Origin: a virus
DNA length: 64,000 nt
Virus record (IMG/VR): IMGVR_UViG_3300035698_034576
Coordinates: 19,152 to 83,151 of that record
Reading direction: 5' to 3' (one strand)
Part shown: positions 543 to 39,022 of the stretch, one piece after another
How positions within the stretch are numbered: position 1 is the first letter of the stretch
Layout of the letters: the number at the start of each line of letters is the position of its first letter
The notes under the pieces: model-generated
Databases searched by the model: none
Told to the model about the DNA's origin: nothing
What the model saw: only the letters and a program-made list of their open reading frames with translations
Position numbers and translations under genes: made by a program

Positions 543-3500
543 ATGATATTTAAGACGAATTTGGCCAAAACGGTTTGGTCCTCAAAATACCGCTATGCTC
601 AAGAATCTGAGCTGCAAACATTTAGAAGACTAGCCAAAGCAATGTCTTCAATTGAAGAAGACAAAGAGTATTGGGAAAAAAGATTTTTTGAAACAATGGT
701 TAAATTTGTGGATAATAAACCACAAGGACTCAAGTGTACAACCGGTGGAAGAATCACAGCCAACTTAGGAACAAGATACAAAGGAGCTACTTTATTTAAT
801 TGTTACATTTCAGGAGAAGTCACAAATGCCCAAGTAAAATACAACAGAACTCTTTCTAATGGAGAAGTGATAAAAGTCAGCTATAAAACCGACAAAGTAG
901 GAGATGATATGAAAAACATCATGTTAACTCTTATGGAACAAACACTTACTTTAAGTAAAGAGGGAGGTTGGGGTTCTAATTTCTCCTGGATTCGTCCAAG
1001 AGGAAGCCTTGTTGGAGGAGTCGGAGTTGAGCACCCTGGAGTTGTTAAGTTTCTTGAAATTTTTGATAAGACTTCAGAAGTAATTGTTGCTGGGAATAAC
1101 GATGGCTACAAAGATCCTTTGGTGGACCGGTACAAAGAAATTCTTGATCTCAATGATAAAAGAGATAAGAAAAAGCAAAGTAGAAAGGGAGCCCAAATGG
1201 CAGTTCTAAATATTGACCATCCAGATATTCAAGAATTTATTACGGCCAAAGTAAAAGGGGGAAGATTGACAAAATTCAATTTGTCAGTAATGGTAACAGA
1301 TGCCTTTCTTGATGCGGTTGAGAAGGATGAGCTCTTTGAATTAAAATTCAATGATGTTGTGTACAAAAAAGTTCTTGCGAGGGAATTGTATGACCTAATA
1401 ATGAAGTCAACTTACAATAGAGCTGAGCCAGGAATTTTGTTCTATGACAACATGCAAGGAAACAATCCATTGGCCTATCTGGGGGATGTAAAAGCTGTAA
1501 ATCCATGTGTTGTTGGAGAAACTTTAGTCTTGACATCAATTGGTTGGGTAAAGTTTGAAAAGCTCTATTCCATGTTTATAGGTAAAAAGAAATTGCCAAA
1601 AATAATAACAAGAAACAAAGAAGGTAAACTTTTCAATTCTGATTTAAAGGAAGTCCTTTTGACAGAAAGGAACTCTCAATTGTTCAAAGTTTCTCTTGGC
1701 AATTCAGAGTTTTTGATTACAAATGGCGAGCATAAGTTTTATAAAAGTGATTTTAGTGAAATTCAAGTTTCAGATATTTTTGAAAAAGTATTAAGAAACG
1801 TTTTCATTGTTTCTGGAGGAGAGGACGTTGAGATTTTAGATGTAGAAGAGTTGGGTTACAAAGAGGACGTTTATGACCTAACAGCAGAACCCAATTTTAA
1901 TTTCTTTTCTCTTTTGAACAAAGAAGAACACATCAATGAGGAAAAAATACTTTTAAATGATTCTGTAGAACTAGATTACTATTCCATTGTTAATACAAAA
2001 AATGGGCAAAGATTTGCGTATGATTTAAAGGAGGGAGAAGATAATTTTGATAAAGCCCTTTTATTTAAAAAGTCTATTTTGAATGTTGACTGTGGAGAAA
2101 TCCCGGGAAATACGGTATCATCAACAGTTTGCTTATTAGGATCGCTGAATCTAACTCAATATGTAAATAAAAAAAGAGAGTTTAATTGGAAGGAATATGA
2201 AGAGGATATTGAGACGTTCACCAGGATGCTTGACAATATTAATGATTTGCACAAAAAAGATCTTCCAGCTTATTTATGGGCAGTTAAAAATGTAAGGCAA
2301 TTTGGCATGGGTTTAAACGGATTTGGTTCTATGCTATATATGTTAGGTATAGGATATAACTCCTCAGAAGCTGTTGAAATGGCTGAGAAGCTAAATAAAA
2401 CAAAGCTTGAGATTGCTCTTAGGTCCTCAGCTTTACTAGCTAAAGAAAAAGGACCTGCTCCAGCATTTTCAGAAAAGTATTTTGAAACAAACTATTGGAA
2501 TGTTTTCTTGAAAGGTAAGGTTTCTAAGAAAACCATAGATTTGATTAAAAAAAATGGCCTAAGAAACTTAAAGGTAACAACAAATCCCCCTTTAGGAAAT
2601 TGTGTTTCTATTGATACAAAAGTTGTTACCGATAATGGAGTAAAAAAACTAAGAGAAATATTCAATGAAAATAATGTAAATAGAGAAATTGAAGAAAATT
2701 GGAGCAAGTGCATATCTGAAACGAAAGTCTTGACTTTAGATGGTTGGAAAAAAATCAAAAATTTATATGTCAATAAAAAAACAGAGGGATTAAAAATAAA
2801 AACAGAAAAGAAAAATGCCATTTCTTGCACCAAAGCTCATAAACTTTTAGTTAAGATAAATGAGAAAGAGGCTGTTTGGAAAGAGGCTGGAGATATAAAA
2901 GAAGGAGACACTATTTTAGTTGTAAAAAGAGATGTTTTGAACAGAGACAACAGAATAAAAGACTTACTTTTAAAAGGTGAAAAGTTTAGCTATAGCAAAT
3001 TTACAATAGACGTTAAGTCTGTTTCCGACTTAAATTGCAAATTTTGTGGTAAACCCTTAAAGATTGGAAATCTTTCTAGAAAAAATAAATCATTTTTTAA
3101 AGTTAAAGGATGCCCATGTAAAGGGAAAAATAACAAGCTCCAGTTTCAATCAGTGTTTGGAGAAAATAGCGAATTATATTTTCAATCTTATAGCCATAAA
3201 GGAAGACTAACCTTAGAATGGCATATTGAGAAATATGGAGAAAAAGAGGGAAAAAGAAGATATAAAAACCTTCTTAAAAAGAGTGACAGAAGCTTGGAGG
3301 GTTTTATAGGAAACTATGGAGTTAAAGACGGAGAAAAAAAATACAATCAATTTCTAGACAAGCTCAGAGGAGACTCTCTAAAGAAGTTCATAAGGGCTCA
3401 TGGGGAAGAGGTTGGAATAGAAAGACACAAGATGTTTATAGAAAAGGCCAAGAAAGGCTATTTTTCATTAGAATATTGGATTGGAGTTTGCGGTGGGGAT

Positions 3501-4097
3501 GAAGCGTTGGCTAAGGAAAAGTACAAGAGCTTCCAAACAAAAAATCTTGTTTGGTACACAGAAAAATATGGTTCAGAAAAAGGATTAATAAAATACAAAA
3601 AAGTTTGTTCAAAACACAGAAGGCACAATAGACCATTGTGGTATATAGACAATTATGGTGAAAAAGATGGTATTCGCTTATTGGATTTATTCTGCAAAAG
3701 AAGAGTTTTTGGAACATCTAAAGTAGCTTCTGATTTTTTTGAAAGACTGGAAAAGGAGATTGGTAAGAGTTGTGAGTATATGCCAAAATCACCTGAAAAA
3801 CATATAACCTCTATTGAAAAAAATAGGGCTTATTTCATTGACTTTTATTGTCCTCATTATAACAAGGGGATCGAATTCAATGGGACTTTTTGGCATTTCT
3901 CAATAGAAGATGAGAAAAAAGAAGAGCCTAATCCTGTTACAAAATTAACTCCATCTCAGACTAAAGAGATAGATGAAAATAAAGCAGAAACAATTGAAAA
4001 AACAATTGAACTTCTTACAATATGGGAAAAAGAACTAAAGGATGAAAGTAAATTAATGGAAAAGTGTATAAAATTTTTAAAAAATGGAAATAATTAA
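543..4097 (+). CDS. nrdJ: Class II (B12-dependent) ribonucleotide reductase, N-terminal part, with intein 1 and the N-half of intein 2 plus a fused endonuclease
   Basis: Motifs TLFNC, EGGWGSNFSWIRPRG, RKGAQMAVLNIDHPDIQEFI, FNLSV, AEPGILF, NP|CGEIP, CLLGSLNL and RQFGMGLNG. Confidence 0.9.
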   Translation: MIFKTNLAKTVWSSKYRYAQESELQTFRRLAKAMSSIEEDKEYWEKRFFETMVKFVDNKPQGLKCTTGGRITANLGTRYKGATLFNCYISGEVTNAQVKYNRTLSNGEVIKVSYKTDKVGDDMKNIMLTLMEQTLTLSKEGGWGSNFSWIRPRGSLVGGVGVEHPGVVKFLEIFDKTSEVIVAGNNDGYKDPLVDRYKEILDLNDKRDKKKQSRKGAQMAVLNIDHPDIQEFITAKVKGGRLTKFNLSVMVTDAFLDAVEKDELFELKFNDVVYKKVLARELYDLIMKSTYNRAEPGILFYDNMQGNNPLAYLGDVKAVNPCVVGETLVLTSIGWVKFEKLYSMFIGKKKLPKIITRNKEGKLFNSDLKEVLLTERNSQLFKVSLGNSEFLITNGEHKFYKSDFSEIQVSDIFEKVLRNVFIVSGGEDVEILDVEELGYKEDVYDLTAEPNFNFFSLLNKEEHINEEKILLNDSVELDYYSIVNTKNGQRFAYDLKEGEDNFDKALLFKKSILNVDCGEIPGNTVSSTVCLLGSLNLTQYVNKKREFNWKEYEEDIETFTRMLDNINDLHKKDLPAYLWAVKNVRQFGMGLNGFGSMLYMLGIGYNSSEAVEMAEKLNKTKLEIALRSSALLAKEKGPAPAFSEKYFETNYWNVFLKGKVSKKTIDLIKKNGLRNLKVTTNPPLGNCVSIDTKVVTDNGVKKLREIFNENNVNREIEENWSKCISETKVLTLDGWKKIKNLYVNKKTEGLKIKTEKKNAISCTKAHKLLVKINEKEAVWKEAGDIKEGDTILVVKRDVLNRDNRIKDLLLKGEKFSYSKFTIDVKSVSDLNCKFCGKPLKIGNLSRKNKSFFKVKGCPCKGKNNKLQFQSVFGENSELYFQSYSHKGRLTLEWHIEKYGEKEGKRRYKNLLKKSDRSLEGFIGNYGVKDGEKKYNQFLDKLRGDSLKKFIRAHGEEVGIERHKMFIEKAKKGYFSLEYWIGVCGGDEALAKEKYKSFQTKNLVWYTEKYGSEKGLIKYKKVCSKHRRHNRPLWYIDNYGEKDGIRLLDLFCKRRVFGTSKVASDFFERLEKEIGKSCEYMPKSPEKHITSIEKNRAYFIDFYCPHYNKGIEFNGTFWHFSIEDEKKEEPNPVTKLTPSQTKEIDENKAETIEKTIELLTIWEKELKDESKLMEKCIKFLKNGNN
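1506..2090 (+). mobile_element. Mini-intein 1 in RNR (195 aa) ending in Asp
   Basis: Starts CVVGETLV after AVNP. Block B is TNGEHKF and block F is VYDLTAEPNFNF. Ends ILNVD before the catalytic CGEIP. Confidence 0.85.
2601..4097 (+). mobile_element. Intein 2 N-fragment fused to a repeat-containing Vsr/DUF559-like endonuclease
   Basis: CVSIDTKV follows PPLGN; also SCTKAHKLL and GDIKEGD. Six KYG/NYG repeats follow, then FIDFYC..GIEFNGTFWH..LTIWE. Confidence 0.85.
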
Positions 4098-5307
4098 TAT
4101 TGAAAATTTAGATTTGCAGGAGGAAGTTGTTGTCTCTATTTCAAAAACATCTTTGAAAACGTTTGATATTGAAGTAGAAGATAATCATCACTATATTTTA
4201 GCAAATGGAATAATTTCGCATAACTCTTCTGTTCTATGTGATAATATATCAAATGGACTAGAACCTGTTTTCATGCACAATTATAATCGCACCCACATTA
4301 CAGAAGGCTGGCCAAAAGATTATACAGAAGAGGATTTGATGAAAAAATTAACAAAGAAAAAAGTTGGGGGGACTGATGTTTGGGAAGGAGAAATAAACGG
4401 AGAAATTTATTATTATGAGCCCCATAACCGAGGCCTCTGTAAAATTGAAACGGTTTATGATTATGGCTATAATTGGGTAAGAGAAAACTATCCTCAAGAC
4501 CTGAAAGAGAACAAGCCTTATTTAATTACAACAAACGACCTTTCTGTCACTGACCACTTAAACGTTCAAGAAGCCTTTCAAAAGTACATTGACCAAGCTG
4601 TTAGTAAAACTATCAATATTCCCAAAAATTATCCTTTTGACGAATTCAAAAAGATTTATATTGATGCTCACAAAAGAGGTTTGTTAGGTCTCACAACCTA
4701 TAGAGACGGAACAATGGAATCAGTTCTCTCTAAGATAGAGGAAAGTGAGGATTTGAAAAAGGACAGATCCGTAATTAAAAACGTAAAACTCCCAAACAAA
4801 TTTGTCAATGGACCTTGTGAAGTTATAAAAAGAGAGAAGCAAAAGTTTTACATTCACTTTTCATATCTTATAGAGGACACAAAGAGAAGCTTTCCAATAG
4901 CTATTTGGATACAAAGCAATCAAAAACCTCAAGGAGAAGCTAAATATGTAAACAGAGCTCTGAAGTCTATTGAGATTTTGCTTACTGACTTTGGAGTTCC
5001 GGAAGAAGAGGTTGAAAAACTAGAGATGAAATACAAAGAGGACTATCCTTACAACAAATTAGCAAAAGCCATTTCAATGAGTTTGAGGCACAATTTGCCA
5101 ATCAAAAATATAGTTCATTCTTTAGAAAACCTTGAGGGAGACACAATATCAAGTCTATTAACAGCAATAAGAAAATTCTTATCAACTCACATTGCAGATG
5201 GTGAATCTGTATTAGATGGACTTTGTGACTCTTGCGGAGGAACTAACGTTGTTTATGAAGGAGGTTGTTCAACTTGCAAAGATTGTGGCAGCACTCAATG
5301 CGGGTAG
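4084..5307 (+). CDS. nrdJ: Class II RNR C-terminal part preceded by a 47-aa intein C-fragment
   Basis: TFDIEVEDNHHYILANGIISHN|SSVL; SNGLEP; QKYIDQAVSKTIN; GLTTYRDG; C-terminal Cys-rich Zn ribbon typical of NrdJ. Confidence 0.9.
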   Translation: MEIINIENLDLQEEVVVSISKTSLKTFDIEVEDNHHYILANGIISHNSSVLCDNISNGLEPVFMHNYNRTHITEGWPKDYTEEDLMKKLTKKKVGGTDVWEGEINGEIYYYEPHNRGLCKIETVYDYGYNWVRENYPQDLKENKPYLITTNDLSVTDHLNVQEAFQKYIDQAVSKTINIPKNYPFDEFKKIYIDAHKRGLLGLTTYRDGTMESVLSKIEESEDLKKDRSVIKNVKLPNKFVNGPCEVIKREKQKFYIHFSYLIEDTKRSFPIAIWIQSNQKPQGEAKYVNRALKSIEILLTDFGVPEEEVEKLEMKYKEDYPYNKLAKAISMSLRHNLPIKNIVHSLENLEGDTISSLLTAIRKFLSTHIADGESVLDGLCDSCGGTNVVYEGGCSTCKDCGSTQCG

Positions 5308-12924: not shown

Positions 12925-13269
12925 ATGAAAAAAATACCGCAATTTCTAATTCAAAAAATAATGATGGGATTAATCATCTTCTTATGGATTGGTTTTTTAT
13001 TGAGTATGGTTGTAGGGAGAGAGGCTTTATGCTCTGATAAAGGATTTTCAATGAAAGCAAGGGTAGAGGTTGTTCAATCAAACCCAGACCTTAGGGTTCA
13101 AATAGTTCAATCAAACCCCGACTGGAGAATAAAGATTGTTGAGAATGATCCATTTGAGTGTGGAGAATGGAGGATTGTCACTTCTCTTCCAGATATTAGG
13201 ATTCAATATGTAACATCAAATCCTGACATTCGAGTCAAATTTGTAAGTGCAAACCCAGGAAAAGAATAA
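12925..13269 (+). CDS. Membrane-anchored or exported protein with 12-aa V-x-S-x-P-D repeats (DUF6150-like)
   Basis: N-terminal TM segment, then RVEVVQSNPD / RVQIVQSNPD / RIKIVENDP-CGEW / RIVTSLPD / QYVTSNPD / KFVSANPG. Confidence 0.6.
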   Translation: MKKIPQFLIQKIMMGLIIFLWIGFLLSMVVGREALCSDKGFSMKARVEVVQSNPDLRVQIVQSNPDWRIKIVENDPFECGEWRIVTSLPDIRIQYVTSNPDIRVKFVSANPGKE

Positions 13270-13419
13270 ATATGTTTGTTTCAATTTTGATTGTAGGAAT
13301 TTGTCTATTCGGAATATTCAAAATGTTCTCTAAAAGTAAAAAAGATTATTAAGCACAAACCTTAAAAAAGACCACAGAGGCAATGCTTTATGAGCCGTTG
13401 TTGTGTGGCGTTATTTACT

Positions 13420-13656
13420 ATGGAAGATTTAATAACACTACTAGCTAAAGGGAAACAGGTTACTGATGAGCATATTAAAGTTGAATTATATGAGATCTGC
13501 GATAGAGTGCATAGTAGGTGCGATAGCGAATGCCCTGTTTTCCGACTTAATGGGAATAAAGTGCCTGATACTGCAAAAGATTTCAATAAAAATAGAGGCT
13601 GCGACTGCTTTAAAAACGGAGCTAATATGCTCGATTTTATTCGTAATGCCACATAA
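13420..13656 (+). CDS. Cys-rich cassette gene 1
   Basis: ICDRVHSRCDSECPV...GCDCFK; the stop codon lies inside GCCACATAAC. Confidence 0.6.
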   Translation: MEDLITLLAKGKQVTDEHIKVELYEICDRVHSRCDSECPVFRLNGNKVPDTAKDFNKNRGCDCFKNGANMLDFIRNAT

Positions 13657-13721
13657 CGGAATAGGACTTGTTATGGTTTCGTGCTTTGTTAATCAGATTA
13701 TTAAACTAAAAATAAAATAAA

Positions 13722-13931
13722 ATGGAATACAATTTTAAATCAAGACCAACAGGGAAATCATTTTCAGAAATGATTCAATTAAAATTTAATATTTTAAAAG
13801 GATTAAATTGTGCTGTTGTAACGCTTAACCCAGAAAAAACCAAAAGGGACTTTAAATACATGACAGGGTCATCGTTAAAATTAGACCTAAGAAAAGATAC
13901 TAAAGATGTGTACAACGCTTTTTTAGCATGA
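13722..13931 (+). CDS. Cassette gene 2, hypothetical (RPTGKS P-loop-like start)
   Basis: 69 aa; the stop abuts AACCATAAC. Confidence 0.55.
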   Translation: MEYNFKSRPTGKSFSEMIQLKFNILKGLNCAVVTLNPEKTKRDFKYMTGSSLKLDLRKDTKDVYNAFLA

Positions 13932-14031
13932 ACCATAACGGTTGAGGCTAAGAGCAATTGCCTTGTAAATACTACTCAATTAATCAGAAATGCTGATGGC
14001 AATTGCTTTTAGCCTTTGTTATAAAACGTTT
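13931..14031. repeat. attC-like imperfect palindrome
   Basis: TAAC-GGTTG-AGGCTAAGAGCAATTGCC ... GGCAATTGCTTTTAGCCT-TT-GTTA (17/18 stem). Confidence 0.75.
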
Positions 14032-14036
14032 TTATT

Positions 14037-14207
14037 ATGGAACTTACAGACAGAGAATTAGCCCTAAGATGGTGGAATAGAAAACCCATTCAAGAAAGAA
14101 CTGAACTTGCAAAACAAGCAAAAATTCCAGTGGAAAATAGAGATTATAATACATTGACAGGTAATGAAATTGAATGGATTTGGCGTAACCAACCGTACAA
14201 CTCTTAA
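14037..14207 (+). CDS. Cassette gene 3 (56 aa, not in ORF track)
   Basis: MELTDRELALRWWNRK...LTGNEIEWIWRNQPYNS. Confidence 0.6.
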   Translation: MELTDRELALRWWNRKPIQERTELAKQAKIPVENRDYNTLTGNEIEWIWRNQPYNS

Positions 14208-14250
14208 ATGTTTTATAACGTAAGGATATACGCAACTCTAAATTAATAAA

Positions 14251-31831: not shown

Positions 31832-33136
31832 ATGGACGGTTTAATTAACTTAGAAGATAAAAGAAAGATAATAGCTTCAAATTTTATAGAGTTTGAACCT
31901 AATATCTTAAAAGCCAGAGCTGGAAGATATGCTGATACATCAGAAAACCGATCTAAAAAAAGAGTTGGTGAGCAGTATGGATCTAAGAAAGAAGAGGAAG
32001 TTAAGGAGGGGAGGGATCCTAAAAAAGAGGACCCAGAAACATCAAGATCAAAAAAAGAAGAGGACCCAAAGAAAGAGGGTAAAGAAAAAGTAGCAAAAAC
32101 AACATCAGAACATGCAAAAGACACTTCAACAGAAGATCTTCAGAATTATGTAGATAATTTCAACCCAGATTCAGTTGTATTCAATAATCAAGAGCTTTTT
32201 GATGAAGCAAAAAAGGAGCTTGCTTCAAGGTCAAAAGAAGGAAAAAGTAAAACAGAAGTTGGTATGATGAAGATTGAAGATAAAATATCTTCTTTAAAAC
32301 AAACCATTGAGGCTACCAGCTCCTTATTAGACACCCTTCCAGAGGGAAAAATGAAAGAAGGAATTGCTCTTAGCATAGAGCAGGGGGAAGATGAGATAAG
32401 AAGCCTAGAAAGTGAAAAAACTTCTCTTGAGAAAAAAAATAAAAAAGAGAAAGAGCCTAAAATTTCACCAGAAGCCTTCATTGCAACATCATCAGTGAAT
32501 GATCTAGCCAAGAAATCTAGCGAACTTGCAAAAGAATCTTCAGAAGCTTTATCAGAAGGAAATTATGAGCTGGCTTCAGAATTAGCAAAACAATCAAGTC
32601 AATATGCACAGAGTATATCTGATAAGATGGGAGAAGCCTCTAAATCTAATGATAAGGAAAAGCTAATAAAAGAAAGAGCTTCCCTTGTTAAGAAGCAAGA
32701 TAAGTTACTTGGTCAAGTTAGCTCAACTTCAAAGGGTAGGCAACAAACAACCTTAAATAACGCTAGAATAAAAGAAATTGATGCAGAGCTTAGCGGTAGT
32801 CCCAAGGAGAAACCTTCTGAAAAGAGCGGGGATAGGGTTACTCTAAATGATCACATGTTAAAAGAGGCAAAGGATAAACCTTCTAAAAAAAATATGATTG
32901 ATGCCAAAATAGACAACAAAGAAGACTTTATCGATTCTATTCAAGAAGAAGACAATGAAGAGATTAATAAAATTTGGAAAAAAGTTTTAGAAGAGGAAGT
33001 TGTATCAGCTTTAGATAAAGAAGGCATAAATGACACTCAAGAAGCCAGAGATGATATTATGAATAACGATAAATTTCATGATACTATTTTTGGAAATGCT
33101 TATACTAAAGCTTTTAAAGAATATTCAAAAAAATAA
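31832..33136 (+). CDS. Tagged charged/coiled-coil putative internal head protein
   Basis: NILKA-RAGRYADTSENRSKKRVGEQY; late-type motif at about 31796-31816. Confidence 0.7.
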   Translation: MDGLINLEDKRKIIASNFIEFEPNILKARAGRYADTSENRSKKRVGEQYGSKKEEEVKEGRDPKKEDPETSRSKKEEDPKKEGKEKVAKTTSEHAKDTSTEDLQNYVDNFNPDSVVFNNQELFDEAKKELASRSKEGKSKTEVGMMKIEDKISSLKQTIEATSSLLDTLPEGKMKEGIALSIEQGEDEIRSLESEKTSLEKKNKKEKEPKISPEAFIATSSVNDLAKKSSELAKESSEALSEGNYELASELAKQSSQYAQSISDKMGEASKSNDKEKLIKERASLVKKQDKLLGQVSSTSKGRQQTTLNNARIKEIDAELSGSPKEKPSEKSGDRVTLNDHMLKEAKDKPSKKNMIDAKIDNKEDFIDSIQEEDNEEINKIWKKVLEEEVVSALDKEGINDTQEARDDIMNNDKFHDTIFGNAYTKAFKEYSKK

Positions 33137-37824: not shown

Positions 37825-38226
37825 ATGAAAAAGAGATTTAAAAAAATATGGATATTTCTTTTATCCTGGAACGAACTAATAACAATCCCTGTTGGCCTTT
37901 TCATTTGGTGGATAGGCCCAACATTGATGCGTTGGTCGGGTTTTGATGAGACAGCTGGAGCATACGATTCAGTCGTACTAACAAAGATAGTTTTTGCTAT
38001 AATAGCGACAGGAATACTTTCAGGTTTTGCTTGGATATTTATTAAACTTGCCTTTCCAGAAGCATATCGGTATCTTGATGAGGCCTTAGGCAAAAACCTA
38101 GAAGAAGAAGTTTATAGTGAAGAGTTTTATAATAATAACATGACAAAATGGCAAAGATCAAAAGTAGTATTGTGGCTGTTATCTTTATATTTATTAGTGT
38201 TGGCCTTTTTGGTCAGTGCGATTTAA
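37825..38226 (+). CDS. Putative holin (3 TM)
   Basis: Three hydrophobic segments; overlaps the endolysin gene. Confidence 0.55.
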   Translation: MKKRFKKIWIFLLSWNELITIPVGLFIWWIGPTLMRWSGFDETAGAYDSVVLTKIVFAIIATGILSGFAWIFIKLAFPEAYRYLDEALGKNLEEEVYSEEFYNNNMTKWQRSKVVLWLLSLYLLVLAFLVSAI

Positions 38227-38687
38227 GGCAAGAGCTTCAAACGAACTATAGAGATTTAATAGGAGTAAGAGAGCTAACGGGGAAAAATGACGGAAAGAAA
38301 GTTTCTGAAATTATAGAGGCCTCAGGCTTTGATTCAGTATCAAGAATTCCTTGGTGTGCTGCTTACATTTATTATAACTTTCTTGAAATAGGGCATAGAT
38401 TGGAAATTAAATACCCAGCTTATGCCCCTTCATATTTTCCTGAAAACAGAGTTATTTATACAAGAGGAAAAGGGAAAAAGTGCACTCCTTTAGAGGGGGA
38501 CATTATAGGAATCTATTTTTCATCTAAAGGAAGGATTGCTCATGTTGGGTTTTATGATGGAGAAAATGAGGATTACATAATTTCCGTAGAAGGAAACACA
38601 AATAAAGCTGGAAGTCGAGAGGGTGATGGAGTTTGGGTAAAATACAGACCAAAAGGAACTATTTATAAAATAAGCCGATTTTTATGA
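38148..38687 (+). CDS. CHAP/NlpC-type endolysin with signal peptide
   Basis: PWCAA...GDI...HVGF...SVEGNT. Confidence 0.8.
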   Translation: MAKIKSSIVAVIFIFISVGLFGQCDLRQELQTNYRDLIGVRELTGKNDGKKVSEIIEASGFDSVSRIPWCAAYIYYNFLEIGHRLEIKYPAYAPSYFPENRVIYTRGKGKKCTPLEGDIIGIYFSSKGRIAHVGFYDGENEDYIISVEGNTNKAGSREGDGVWVKYRPKGTIYKISRFL

Positions 38688-39022
38688 TTAAAAAAATAGC
38701 AGTACAGGTTATCTTGTCAATCGCATTGATTGTTGTTACTTATCTATACTTCACAAAACCGGTAAAGATATTCAACACTGATCAGGTTGAGATAAATAGA
38801 TTAAATGATTCAATAAACAAGTTGAAATCTGCTTACAGTTTCCTTCTAGAAAAAGAAAGCGATAGTCTTGTTGATCTTATTGAAAGGAAGGATTCTGTTA
38901 TAAGAATAAAGAATGCTAATTACTGGAACTTAAAAAAGGAACATGAAAAAACTATTATTTCTATTATGGCTATGCCTGACGATTCCATCGTTATCCTTTT
39001 CTCAAGACTCACTATCCAATAA
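38684..39022 (+). CDS. Spanin-like protein (N-terminal TM plus coiled coil)
   Basis: Topology and position after the endolysin. Confidence 0.5.
   Translation: MIKKIAVQVILSIALIVVTYLYFTKPVKIFNTDQVEINRLNDSINKLKSAYSFLLEKESDSLVDLIERKDSVIRIKNANYWNLKKEHEKTIISIMAMPDDSIVILFSRLTIQ

Follow-up and report, generated by a model that had tools for sequence, protein, structure and literature searches.

A probable integron-like array of single-gene cassettes among the early genes of a Flavobacteria-type phage

What purpose do inverted repeats serve when they stand at the two ends of each of three consecutive phage genes? The question is raised by positions 13400-14219 of a 64,000-nucleotide (nt) stretch of viral DNA (hereafter the window), which covers bases 19152-83151 of the 83,151-bp viral contig of IMG/VR record IMGVR_UViG_3300035698_034576, whose completeness is estimated at about 75%. 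The phage is of the Flavobacteria type, its three genes are small early genes, and each is bracketed by an inverted pair of its own. An initial annotation, made from the letters of the window alone, had read the region as an integron-like array of gene cassettes. Our comparisons support that interpretation in part. We consider it probable that the three genes of 13400-14219 are each a DNA cassette, and that these cassettes belong to an integron-like system through which Bacteroidota (Flavobacteriales) and their phages exchange genes; the system is not a classical integron.

The underlying observation is confirmed. Three own-gene inverted pairs, an 18-nt hairpin and a 12-nt junction between cassettes 1 and 2 had been reported for the region, and all of them are found where the initial annotation put them. 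We call the two members of a pair the left box, which starts with GTT, and the right box, which ends with AAC. Each AAC box had been said to lie at a stop codon, and the right box does overlap the stop codon of its own gene in all three cassettes. All genes called near the cassettes are on the plus strand, and the features, including open reading frames (ORFs) with their lengths in amino acids (aa), are as follows.

13358..13399, plus strand: possible first junction and spacer; AAC at 13358-13360 just past the stop codon that ends an ORF of 26 codons, followed by the spacer before cassette 1
13400..13414, plus strand: left box of cassette 1, GTTGT... type; pairs with 13644-13657
13420..13656, plus strand: gene of cassette 1, 78 aa; ATG at 13420, in-frame upstream ATG at 13390
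13644..13657, plus strand: right box of cassette 1, ending ...ATAAC; its own TAA is the stop codon; putative crossover site
13658..13669, plus strand: spacer between cassettes 1 and 2, shortened to 12 nt; no hairpin, unlike the spacers of relatives
13670..13685, plus strand: left box of cassette 2; pairs with 13925-13939
13722..13931, plus strand: gene of cassette 2, 69 aa; homologues in L002 (72% identity) and L003 (60%)
13925..13939, plus strand: right box of cassette 2, ending ...CATAAC and including the TGA stop; putative crossover site
13940..14017, plus strand: spacer hairpin heading cassette 3; arms 13945-13962 and 13998-14015
14018..14031, plus strand: left box of cassette 3; pairs with 14206-14219
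14037..14207, plus strand: gene of cassette 3 (gene 3), 56 aa; 84-95% identical copies in otherwise unrelated phage and metagenome contigs
14206..14219, plus strand: right box of cassette 3, ending ...ATAAC; putative crossover site and array end; similarity to 10 other contexts stops here

In cassette 1, 13400-13413 and 13644-13657 form 12 Watson-Crick pairs out of 14, both mismatches being G:T on the plus strand, and the stem has a predicted pairing probability of at least 0.94 when that strand is folded as RNA. Cassette 2 (13670-13685 with 13925-13939) has 15 pairs, one bulged T and one G:T, and cassette 3 (14018-14031 with 14206-14219) has 13 Watson-Crick pairs out of 14 plus one G:T. Besides the bulge in cassette 2, every mismatch places a left-box G opposite a right-box T. 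The left boxes begin GTTGTGT, GTTATGG and GTTATAA, and each departs from the GTTRRRY consensus at one or two positions, as had been noticed from the start. The hairpin between cassettes 2 and 3 has 18-nt arms that are 94% complementary and the layout AAC, 5 nt, 18-nt stem, 2 nt, GTT; junctions of relatives read AAC, 5-6 nt, hairpin, 3 nt, GTT.

Such pairing is a local feature. Over all 93 genes called, the set behind our comparisons of own with mismatched flanks, the mean for own flanks is 6.43 vs 6.40 for mismatched ones, which rules out a genome-wide habit of pairing gene flanks. Against this background the own 5'/3' duplex energies of the three cassettes (-30.2, -22.4 and -18.7 kcal/mol) rank first, second and joint third among the 93 genes, and the share of mismatched gene pairs (n = 8,556) doing equally well is 0%, 0.35% and 2.0%, respectively. 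Anchored pairs of the form GTTRT...AYAAC, 80-2000 nt apart, number 911 in the 83-kb contig, and all nine further positions are paired in only two of them, namely cassettes 1 and 3. The concern that such pairs might arise by chance at this AT content is not borne out by these comparisons. The initial annotation had further claimed that each right box matches its own left box far better than the adjacent one; this holds in energy, where pairing with a neighbouring box reaches about -12, and fails across the cassette 2/3 hairpin, which is real. When each unit is folded alone, the end stem closes with high probability on the plus strand and less well on the minus strand.

Do the bracketed genes behave as units? 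Comparison with other genomes (cited by our own numbers where needed) indicates that they are modular, as had been proposed, since they recur in different orders and contexts with breaks at the boxes. Copies of gene 3 that are 84-95% identical occur in five other viral contigs as well as in metagenome contigs, one of them within a 430-kb record. The five phage contigs compared have no ORF family common to three or more of them apart from gene 3, which is present in four; G001 carries a homologue of cassette 2 instead. Sixteen gene-3 contexts can be read on both sides, and the complementary box pair is present in 11, the right box alone in four and neither box in one (L036), so that the flanks expected around homologues are kept by most relatives and missing in part or altogether from the others. 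In the 11 contexts with the box type of the window or a one-letter variant, similarity ends exactly past ATAAC: median identity over the 30 nt beyond is 27% (55 pairs), and the base right after ATAAC is G in nine of them. The hairpin spacer upstream of gene 3 is kept in L004 and L008, and the preceding genes diverge exactly from ...AAC|. Gene order varies as well, gene 3 standing ahead of a gene-2-type unit in L024 and a cassette-1-type box behind gene 3 in L004.

Three of the four contexts that hold the right box alone are in-frame fusions. In L023 (553-840), L026 (1112-1399) and L028 (872-1159) gene 3 forms the C-terminal part of a 95-aa protein with a 39-residue N-terminal extension, the right box being retained and the left box absent. 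For the protein of cassette 1 and the neighbouring genes on both sides no relatives were found in viral contigs, and there is therefore no direct comparison with a close relative of this phage. When the phage collection was searched by DNA, the region gave a single match of 93 nt and a control region gave none; protein 3 had no match in that collection.

Contigs of four metagenome runs were also compared with the region. In one of them (X2 record 9) the two boxes of cassette 2 enclose a different interior and are joined directly to the spacer preceding cassette 1, so that a spacer related to 13358..13399 abuts a cassette-2-type left box; 13358..13399 is itself a weak candidate for the start of the array. 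Further contigs diverge just past the left box of cassette 1 (13415) or that of gene 3 (14033) into other genes, and in three of the metagenome runs the gene 3 left box stands ahead of other genes. At window positions 13998-14035 (35 nt, the spacer end plus the gene 3 left box) summed contig depth is 86 in run X1 vs 2-5 around; the sequence leads there into a different gene, and this left-box type is therefore common in that sample. The left-box type of cassette 1 likewise brackets unrelated genes in L011 and L020.

The box sequences themselves change between homologues in a concerted way. Distant homologues in L020, L031, L032 and L043, as well as a gene-2 homologue in L013, have other boxes that still pair, and what distinguishes L032 from L043 is a single compensated change, C-G to T-A. 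The homologue of cassette 2 in L002 has different, self-complementary boxes and the copy in L003 has none. By comparison across genomes, then, the box pairs of homologous genes covary and stay complementary. An ORF-anchored scan that counted Watson-Crick pairs only found 23 bracketed genes among 1,176 ORFs vs 5.6 expected from a mismatched control. In 22 phage units, own boxes match at 8.64 of 11 positions vs 4.45 for the boxes of other units, and the 308 stem cells comprise 256 Watson-Crick pairs, 25 G:T or T:G, no A/C and 27 others, mostly T:T. Counted from the outer end, position 11 is G:T in 14 units, T:T in seven and A-T in one, which points to a fixed polarity of the site with respect to the strand.

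In two phage loci the left box lies within a reading frame (L013 11280-11434 and L011 16016-16181) and is read as V-S-x-S-A in both. The box therefore doubles as coding sequence there, and the paired unit spans only the C-terminal part of the protein.

Where could an enzyme acting on such sites come from? The initial annotation had placed the recombinase outside the window, and this agrees with what was found, since no tyrosine or serine recombinase turned up in the contig and an Xer-like enzyme stands beside arrays of the same family in Flavobacteriales chromosomes. Its suggestion of an IntI-like recombinase fared less well. The IntI model TIGR02249 scored above its cut-off in none of 301 sampled Flavobacteriales genomes, nor was an IntI found in the phage; the three best proteins reached 223-237 bits against a cut-off of 265, matched in two stretches that skip the middle of the profile, and are Xer-like proteins of 367-381 residues, that is, tyrosine recombinases of another kind. 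Rows of co-oriented small genes adjoin two of these three (L063 and L062). Five cassettes of the two arrays are bracketed by their own boxes at 9 or more of 11 positions vs 0.3-0.6 in shuffles. Their position 11 is A:C on the coding strand in all five, the mirror image of the phage units, and their unequal spacers are mirrored as well. A left box of the GTTGTGTGT type, similar to that of cassette 1, precedes a gene in L063 (read by eye, outside the scored pairs). The box type of the L062 array, GTTGTACGC, is also present in L025, and gp56 of Polaribacter phage P12002L has the near variant GTTGTACGT.

Cultured phages show the same design. In Qi et al. 2023 (PMC9892861), integrase-less attC clusters are predicted in virulent phages including Polaribacter phage P12002L, and IntI1 is described as recombining one of two P12002L sites tested. 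We find in P12002L, on the minus strand at 29-41 kb, GTT.../...AAC stems that reach about 30 nt and enclose genes for methylases, a Mom-like gene and small genes, with hairpin spacers separating the cassettes. The sister isolate P12002S is about 99% identical to P12002L in shared blocks and covers only 70% of this region, and the two differ by whole cassettes. Seven block edges could be read: every one is on the AAC side, a left GTT marks none of them, and six are within 2 nt of a gene-end AAC. Inserted blocks start with the spacer and finish with ...AAC, so each spacer stays attached to the gene downstream of it. Sequence identity across the junctions extends over only about 4-7 nt in six of the seven edges. 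Cellulophaga phage phi12:1 and Flavobacterium phage filifjonk9-1 have the same punctuation and share box types with the uncultured phages; in filifjonk9-1 the gene 3 left box stands before another gene, and phi12:1 has a geneless hairpin that resembles the two boxes of gene 3 fused.

Some further details of these phages may be recorded here. Spacer hairpins of L044 (P12002L; about 38,000-38,950 and 32,130-32,280, minus strand) and L051 (2381-2488) share a 19-nt interior (CGTTTGAGGTACGAAAATG), which is thus common to a Polaribacter phage and Cellulophaga phage phi12:1. Its origin as a host repeat was rejected, 9 of 401 Flavobacteriales genomes matching at 2 mismatches vs about 15 for a reversed control. 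In the methylase and Mom-like cassettes (L044 gp53 and gp54, L051 gp6) the stems form a second class, 26-30 nt long, in which positions 9-13 are a conserved patch without pairing, left TCTGT opposite right TATTG.

How might the cassettes move? On the reading we favour, a cassette would extend from just past one gene-end ...AAC to the next, and its parts would be a spacer (in most cases a hairpin), a left box starting with GTT, the gene and a right box ending with AAC. The two boxes of one cassette would pair on one strand, which in phages is the coding strand, and this pairing may bring the AAC into a stem whose position 11 is conserved as non-Watson-Crick. A host-encoded Xer-like tyrosine recombinase could then cut at AAC on folded single-stranded DNA and exchange, delete or insert whole cassettes. 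The cut possibly falls at AA|C, equivalent to G|TT on the opposite strand; comparisons cannot place the phosphodiester within AACG. The initial annotation had put the crossover at the left-hand G|TT (13400/1, 13670/1, 14018/9), a placement that we abandon, as breaks recur after the right AAC box and the spacer moves with the downstream gene; a recurrent crossover after the right-hand boxes, at 13657, 13939 and 14219, appears the better candidate. Of the proposal that the phage shuffles early genes as site-specifically recombined cassettes, the shuffling finds support in the modularity and in the break points at the boxes, and the mechanism, including enzyme, single-stranded substrate and exact cut, is one that we infer from comparisons only.

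Several observations weigh against this account. In the searches made, the contig (83 kb, about 75% complete) has no tyrosine recombinase, serine recombinase or Y1 transposase, and the Phage_integrase profile (PF00589) has no match in it at E <= 1. An Xer-like recombinase at E <= 1e-40 is present in only three of the 301 sampled Flavobacteriales genomes. Four gene-3 contexts hold the right box alone, and L036 and L024, the latter readable downstream of the gene only, are without the right box. X2 record 9 joins the cassette 1 spacer to the cassette 2 left box at |GTT, and genes are swapped inside an unchanged box pair in L020 and in the contigs leaving the window at 13415 and 14033. Exchange thus also occurs at the inner box edges and at the left GTT, and a single crossover at AAC does not explain it. 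One of the seven edges between P12002L and P12002S lies 11 nt past AAC within a repeated spacer motif, a 14-nt imperfect direct repeat; together with the |GTT join it implies that short-repeat recombination occurs as well, and this process could account for a larger share of the pattern. The metagenome contigs compared with the region showed no circle or excision joint, although rare forms would not be visible in contigs. A score that rewards G:T was used in first selecting some of the 22 units, and this biases the count of G:T against A/C; units found via protein homology or by Watson-Crick-only scoring show the same G:T pattern.

The alternative that survives best takes boxes and spacers as conserved linker motifs, with ordinary homologous or microhomology recombination shuffling the modules between them and no dedicated recombinase involved, as with PeSL in T4-type phages. 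The phages have no recombinase of their own in the searches made, box types recur around unrelated genes, genes swap within unchanged boxes, one P12002L/S edge falls within an imperfect direct repeat of 14 nt, and PeSL-mediated shuffling and mini-circles have been documented in PMC2839356. We nevertheless regard this alternative as unlikely. It offers no reason why the ends should be complementary, with compensated changes and a fixed strand polarity, the identity at six of the seven P12002L/S junctions is only about 4-7 nt long, and a recombinase adjoins the host arrays. Nor does the region have an excess of promoters or terminators, with 5 sigma-70-like promoter sites vs 8.6 in shuffles and 2 terminator-like sites vs 1.2, in a scan that does not cover Bacteroidota promoters.

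Next in order is the possibility that the boxes act in the mRNA, the ends of each message pairing as a closing stem that serves processing, stability, translational control or insulation, and that cassette exchange is a by-product of recombination at conserved punctuation. The coding-strand stems are indeed predicted at a probability of at least 0.86 at most positions when folded as RNA, the other strand folds worse, the mismatches in phages are compatible with G:U, and the boxes are suitably placed, the left one ending 4-36 nt ahead of the start codon and the right one overlapping the stop codon. The host arrays speak for another explanation. Their mirrored boxes would put an A:C at position 11 of the mRNA in five of five cassettes; the polarity follows the site and not the message, and we therefore favour a DNA recombination site over an mRNA structure. 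A left box inside the reading frame, as in L013 (11280) and L011 (16016), and break points concentrated at one base past AAC also fit poorly with a role in the message, which we judge improbable.

It is very improbable that the GTT...AAC units are small transposons, each with terminal inverted repeats and a transposase supplied in trans. The inverted ends of 14-16 nt with conserved tips, the many contexts and sharp edges of the gene 3 unit, and the occurrence of short geneless hairpin units would suit such an element. Against it stand the lack of a target duplication at any junction read, the position of all seven P12002L/S edges on the AAC side with none at the left GTT, and the left end lying inside a gene in several units, where the unit would cut the gene. 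Where the two ends vary at inner positions they remain complementary, a property that binding by a protein would not need, and no Y1 transposase was found in the contig, DDE and other transposase families not having been searched. Lastly, that the three pairs are chance matches in AT-rich DNA can be dismissed almost entirely: a plain repeat scan of 2 kb around the cassettes does list 40 inverted pairs, most of them chance, and window-wide own flanks pair no better than mismatched ones, but the cassettes have the top ranks among the 93 genes, provide both of the fully paired cases among the 911 anchored pairs, and have boxes that are conserved or compensated in homologues of other genomes.

Among other candidates considered, invertible gene switches are excluded by the single orientation and the fixed left/right asymmetry of all units. 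CRISPR-repeat mimicry, left-box promoters and fixed-spacer duplex recombination sites were dropped; junction spacers range from 1 to about 110 nt.

How, then, does the array relate to known systems? It resembles classical integrons and CALINs in having co-oriented single-gene cassettes whose start is complementary to their own end, break points at the conserved triplet and strand-specific pairing, and DNA methylases are often cargo in both. Its junctions are possibly attC-like: between cassettes 2 and 3 an imperfect hairpin, with unpaired spacers of unequal length, is flanked by AAC and GTT, and the junction between cassettes 1 and 2 is only 12 nt. Unlike classical integrons, it comes with no IntI in the phage contig or the 301 sampled genomes, and its phage boxes are off the GTTRRRY consensus. 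The complementarity between R boxes of classical integrons extends over about 7 nt. The ends here are complementary over 14-16 nt, and over about 30 nt in P12002L, i.e. about two to four times longer, so that the own-end complementarity, first taken as the signature of integron attC sites, retains the cassette logic and differs from attC in length. The phage sites match no Rfam family. Furthermore, the phage site precedes its gene and its foldable strand is the coding strand, whereas the host arrays have the classical polarity. CTX-type phages and similar elements use host Xer recombinases on folded single-stranded DNA, integrating whole genomes at chromosomal dif sites. A host Xer enzyme acting on a one-strand hairpin is the kind of reaction that we envisage here; the difference is that single genes would be exchanged within phage genomes.

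Two further published systems bear comparison. The rAID-1 clusters of Bacteroidales are described by Ross et al. (10.1101/471110) as a recombinase of the XerD family heading arrays of orphan immunity genes, with intergenic repeats 'reminiscent of integrons'. By that description the Flavobacteriales arrays L063 and L062 are alike in layout, with co-oriented small genes, repeated intergenic sites and an Xer-like tyrosine recombinase at the head. The phage cassettes also are co-oriented small genes, split by a site family that they share with the Flavobacteriales chromosomal arrays, but the phage contig lacks such an enzyme, and with respect to the site the phage genes point in the opposite direction. 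Among phages, shuffling at repeated motifs has its nearest analogue in the PeSL cassettes of the T4 type (Arbiol et al. 2010, PMC2839356), which are direct promoter-terminator repeats acting by homologous recombination: in them too, small non-essential variable-region genes are bounded by repeated stem-loop motifs, where indels and replacements between close relatives map. The present cassettes are unlike them in that the two ends of one gene are inverted complements and that no promoter or terminator excess was found, none of the five sigma-70-like sites lying in spacers. The kind of system is partly in print, and the window adds a further member. Its long own-end pairing, its flipped orientation and the cassettes common to unrelated phages were not met with in the literature searched; the supplements of PMC9892861 and 10.1101/471110 may contain relevant motifs and site coordinates.

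A wider conjecture can be offered tentatively, as one that is plausible and still falls short of being probable. Flavobacteriales and their otherwise unrelated phages may share one stock of single-gene cassettes. The exchange would run through a second, integron-like system with an evolutionary history separate from that of IntI, in which a host Xer-like recombinase would cut the AAC presented by end pairing on single-stranded DNA. The phages would carry flipped sites, with the gene behind the hairpin, and could trade early and anti-restriction genes such as those for DNA methylases without a recombinase of their own.

Fast turnover of small genes in lytic phages is mostly ascribed to illegitimate recombination. 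For the accessory-gene turnover considered here, one can point to the units, to where they end and to a candidate enzyme family. Cassette cargo in cultured relatives includes DNA methylases and a Mom-like modification gene, and the system therefore probably feeds the arms race between phage and host. The long own-end pairing and the mirrored orientation differ from classical integrons and may for that reason help to show what an integron-type reaction requires, and the geneless hairpins with the same inner motifs as gene-bearing boxes may bear on the origin of cassettes. The isolates P12002L and P12002S, growing on Polaribacter, form a cultured pair with which the idea can be tested at the bench.

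Regarding the genes themselves, searches against Pfam and PHROGs assigned no family to any of the three cassette proteins, and an Rfam search of the region at E <= 10 gave only weak, chance-level matches below threshold (snoRNA, hammerhead). Directly upstream of the array, a 114-aa protein (12925-13269) begins with a hydrophobic segment at its N terminus, continues with about six copies of a short repeated motif (...SNPD-x-R-[VI]...) and matches phrog_6462, a family without assigned function. Elsewhere in the window, a 1,184-aa ORF at 543-5307 overlaps the next ORF (407 aa) by 14 nt.

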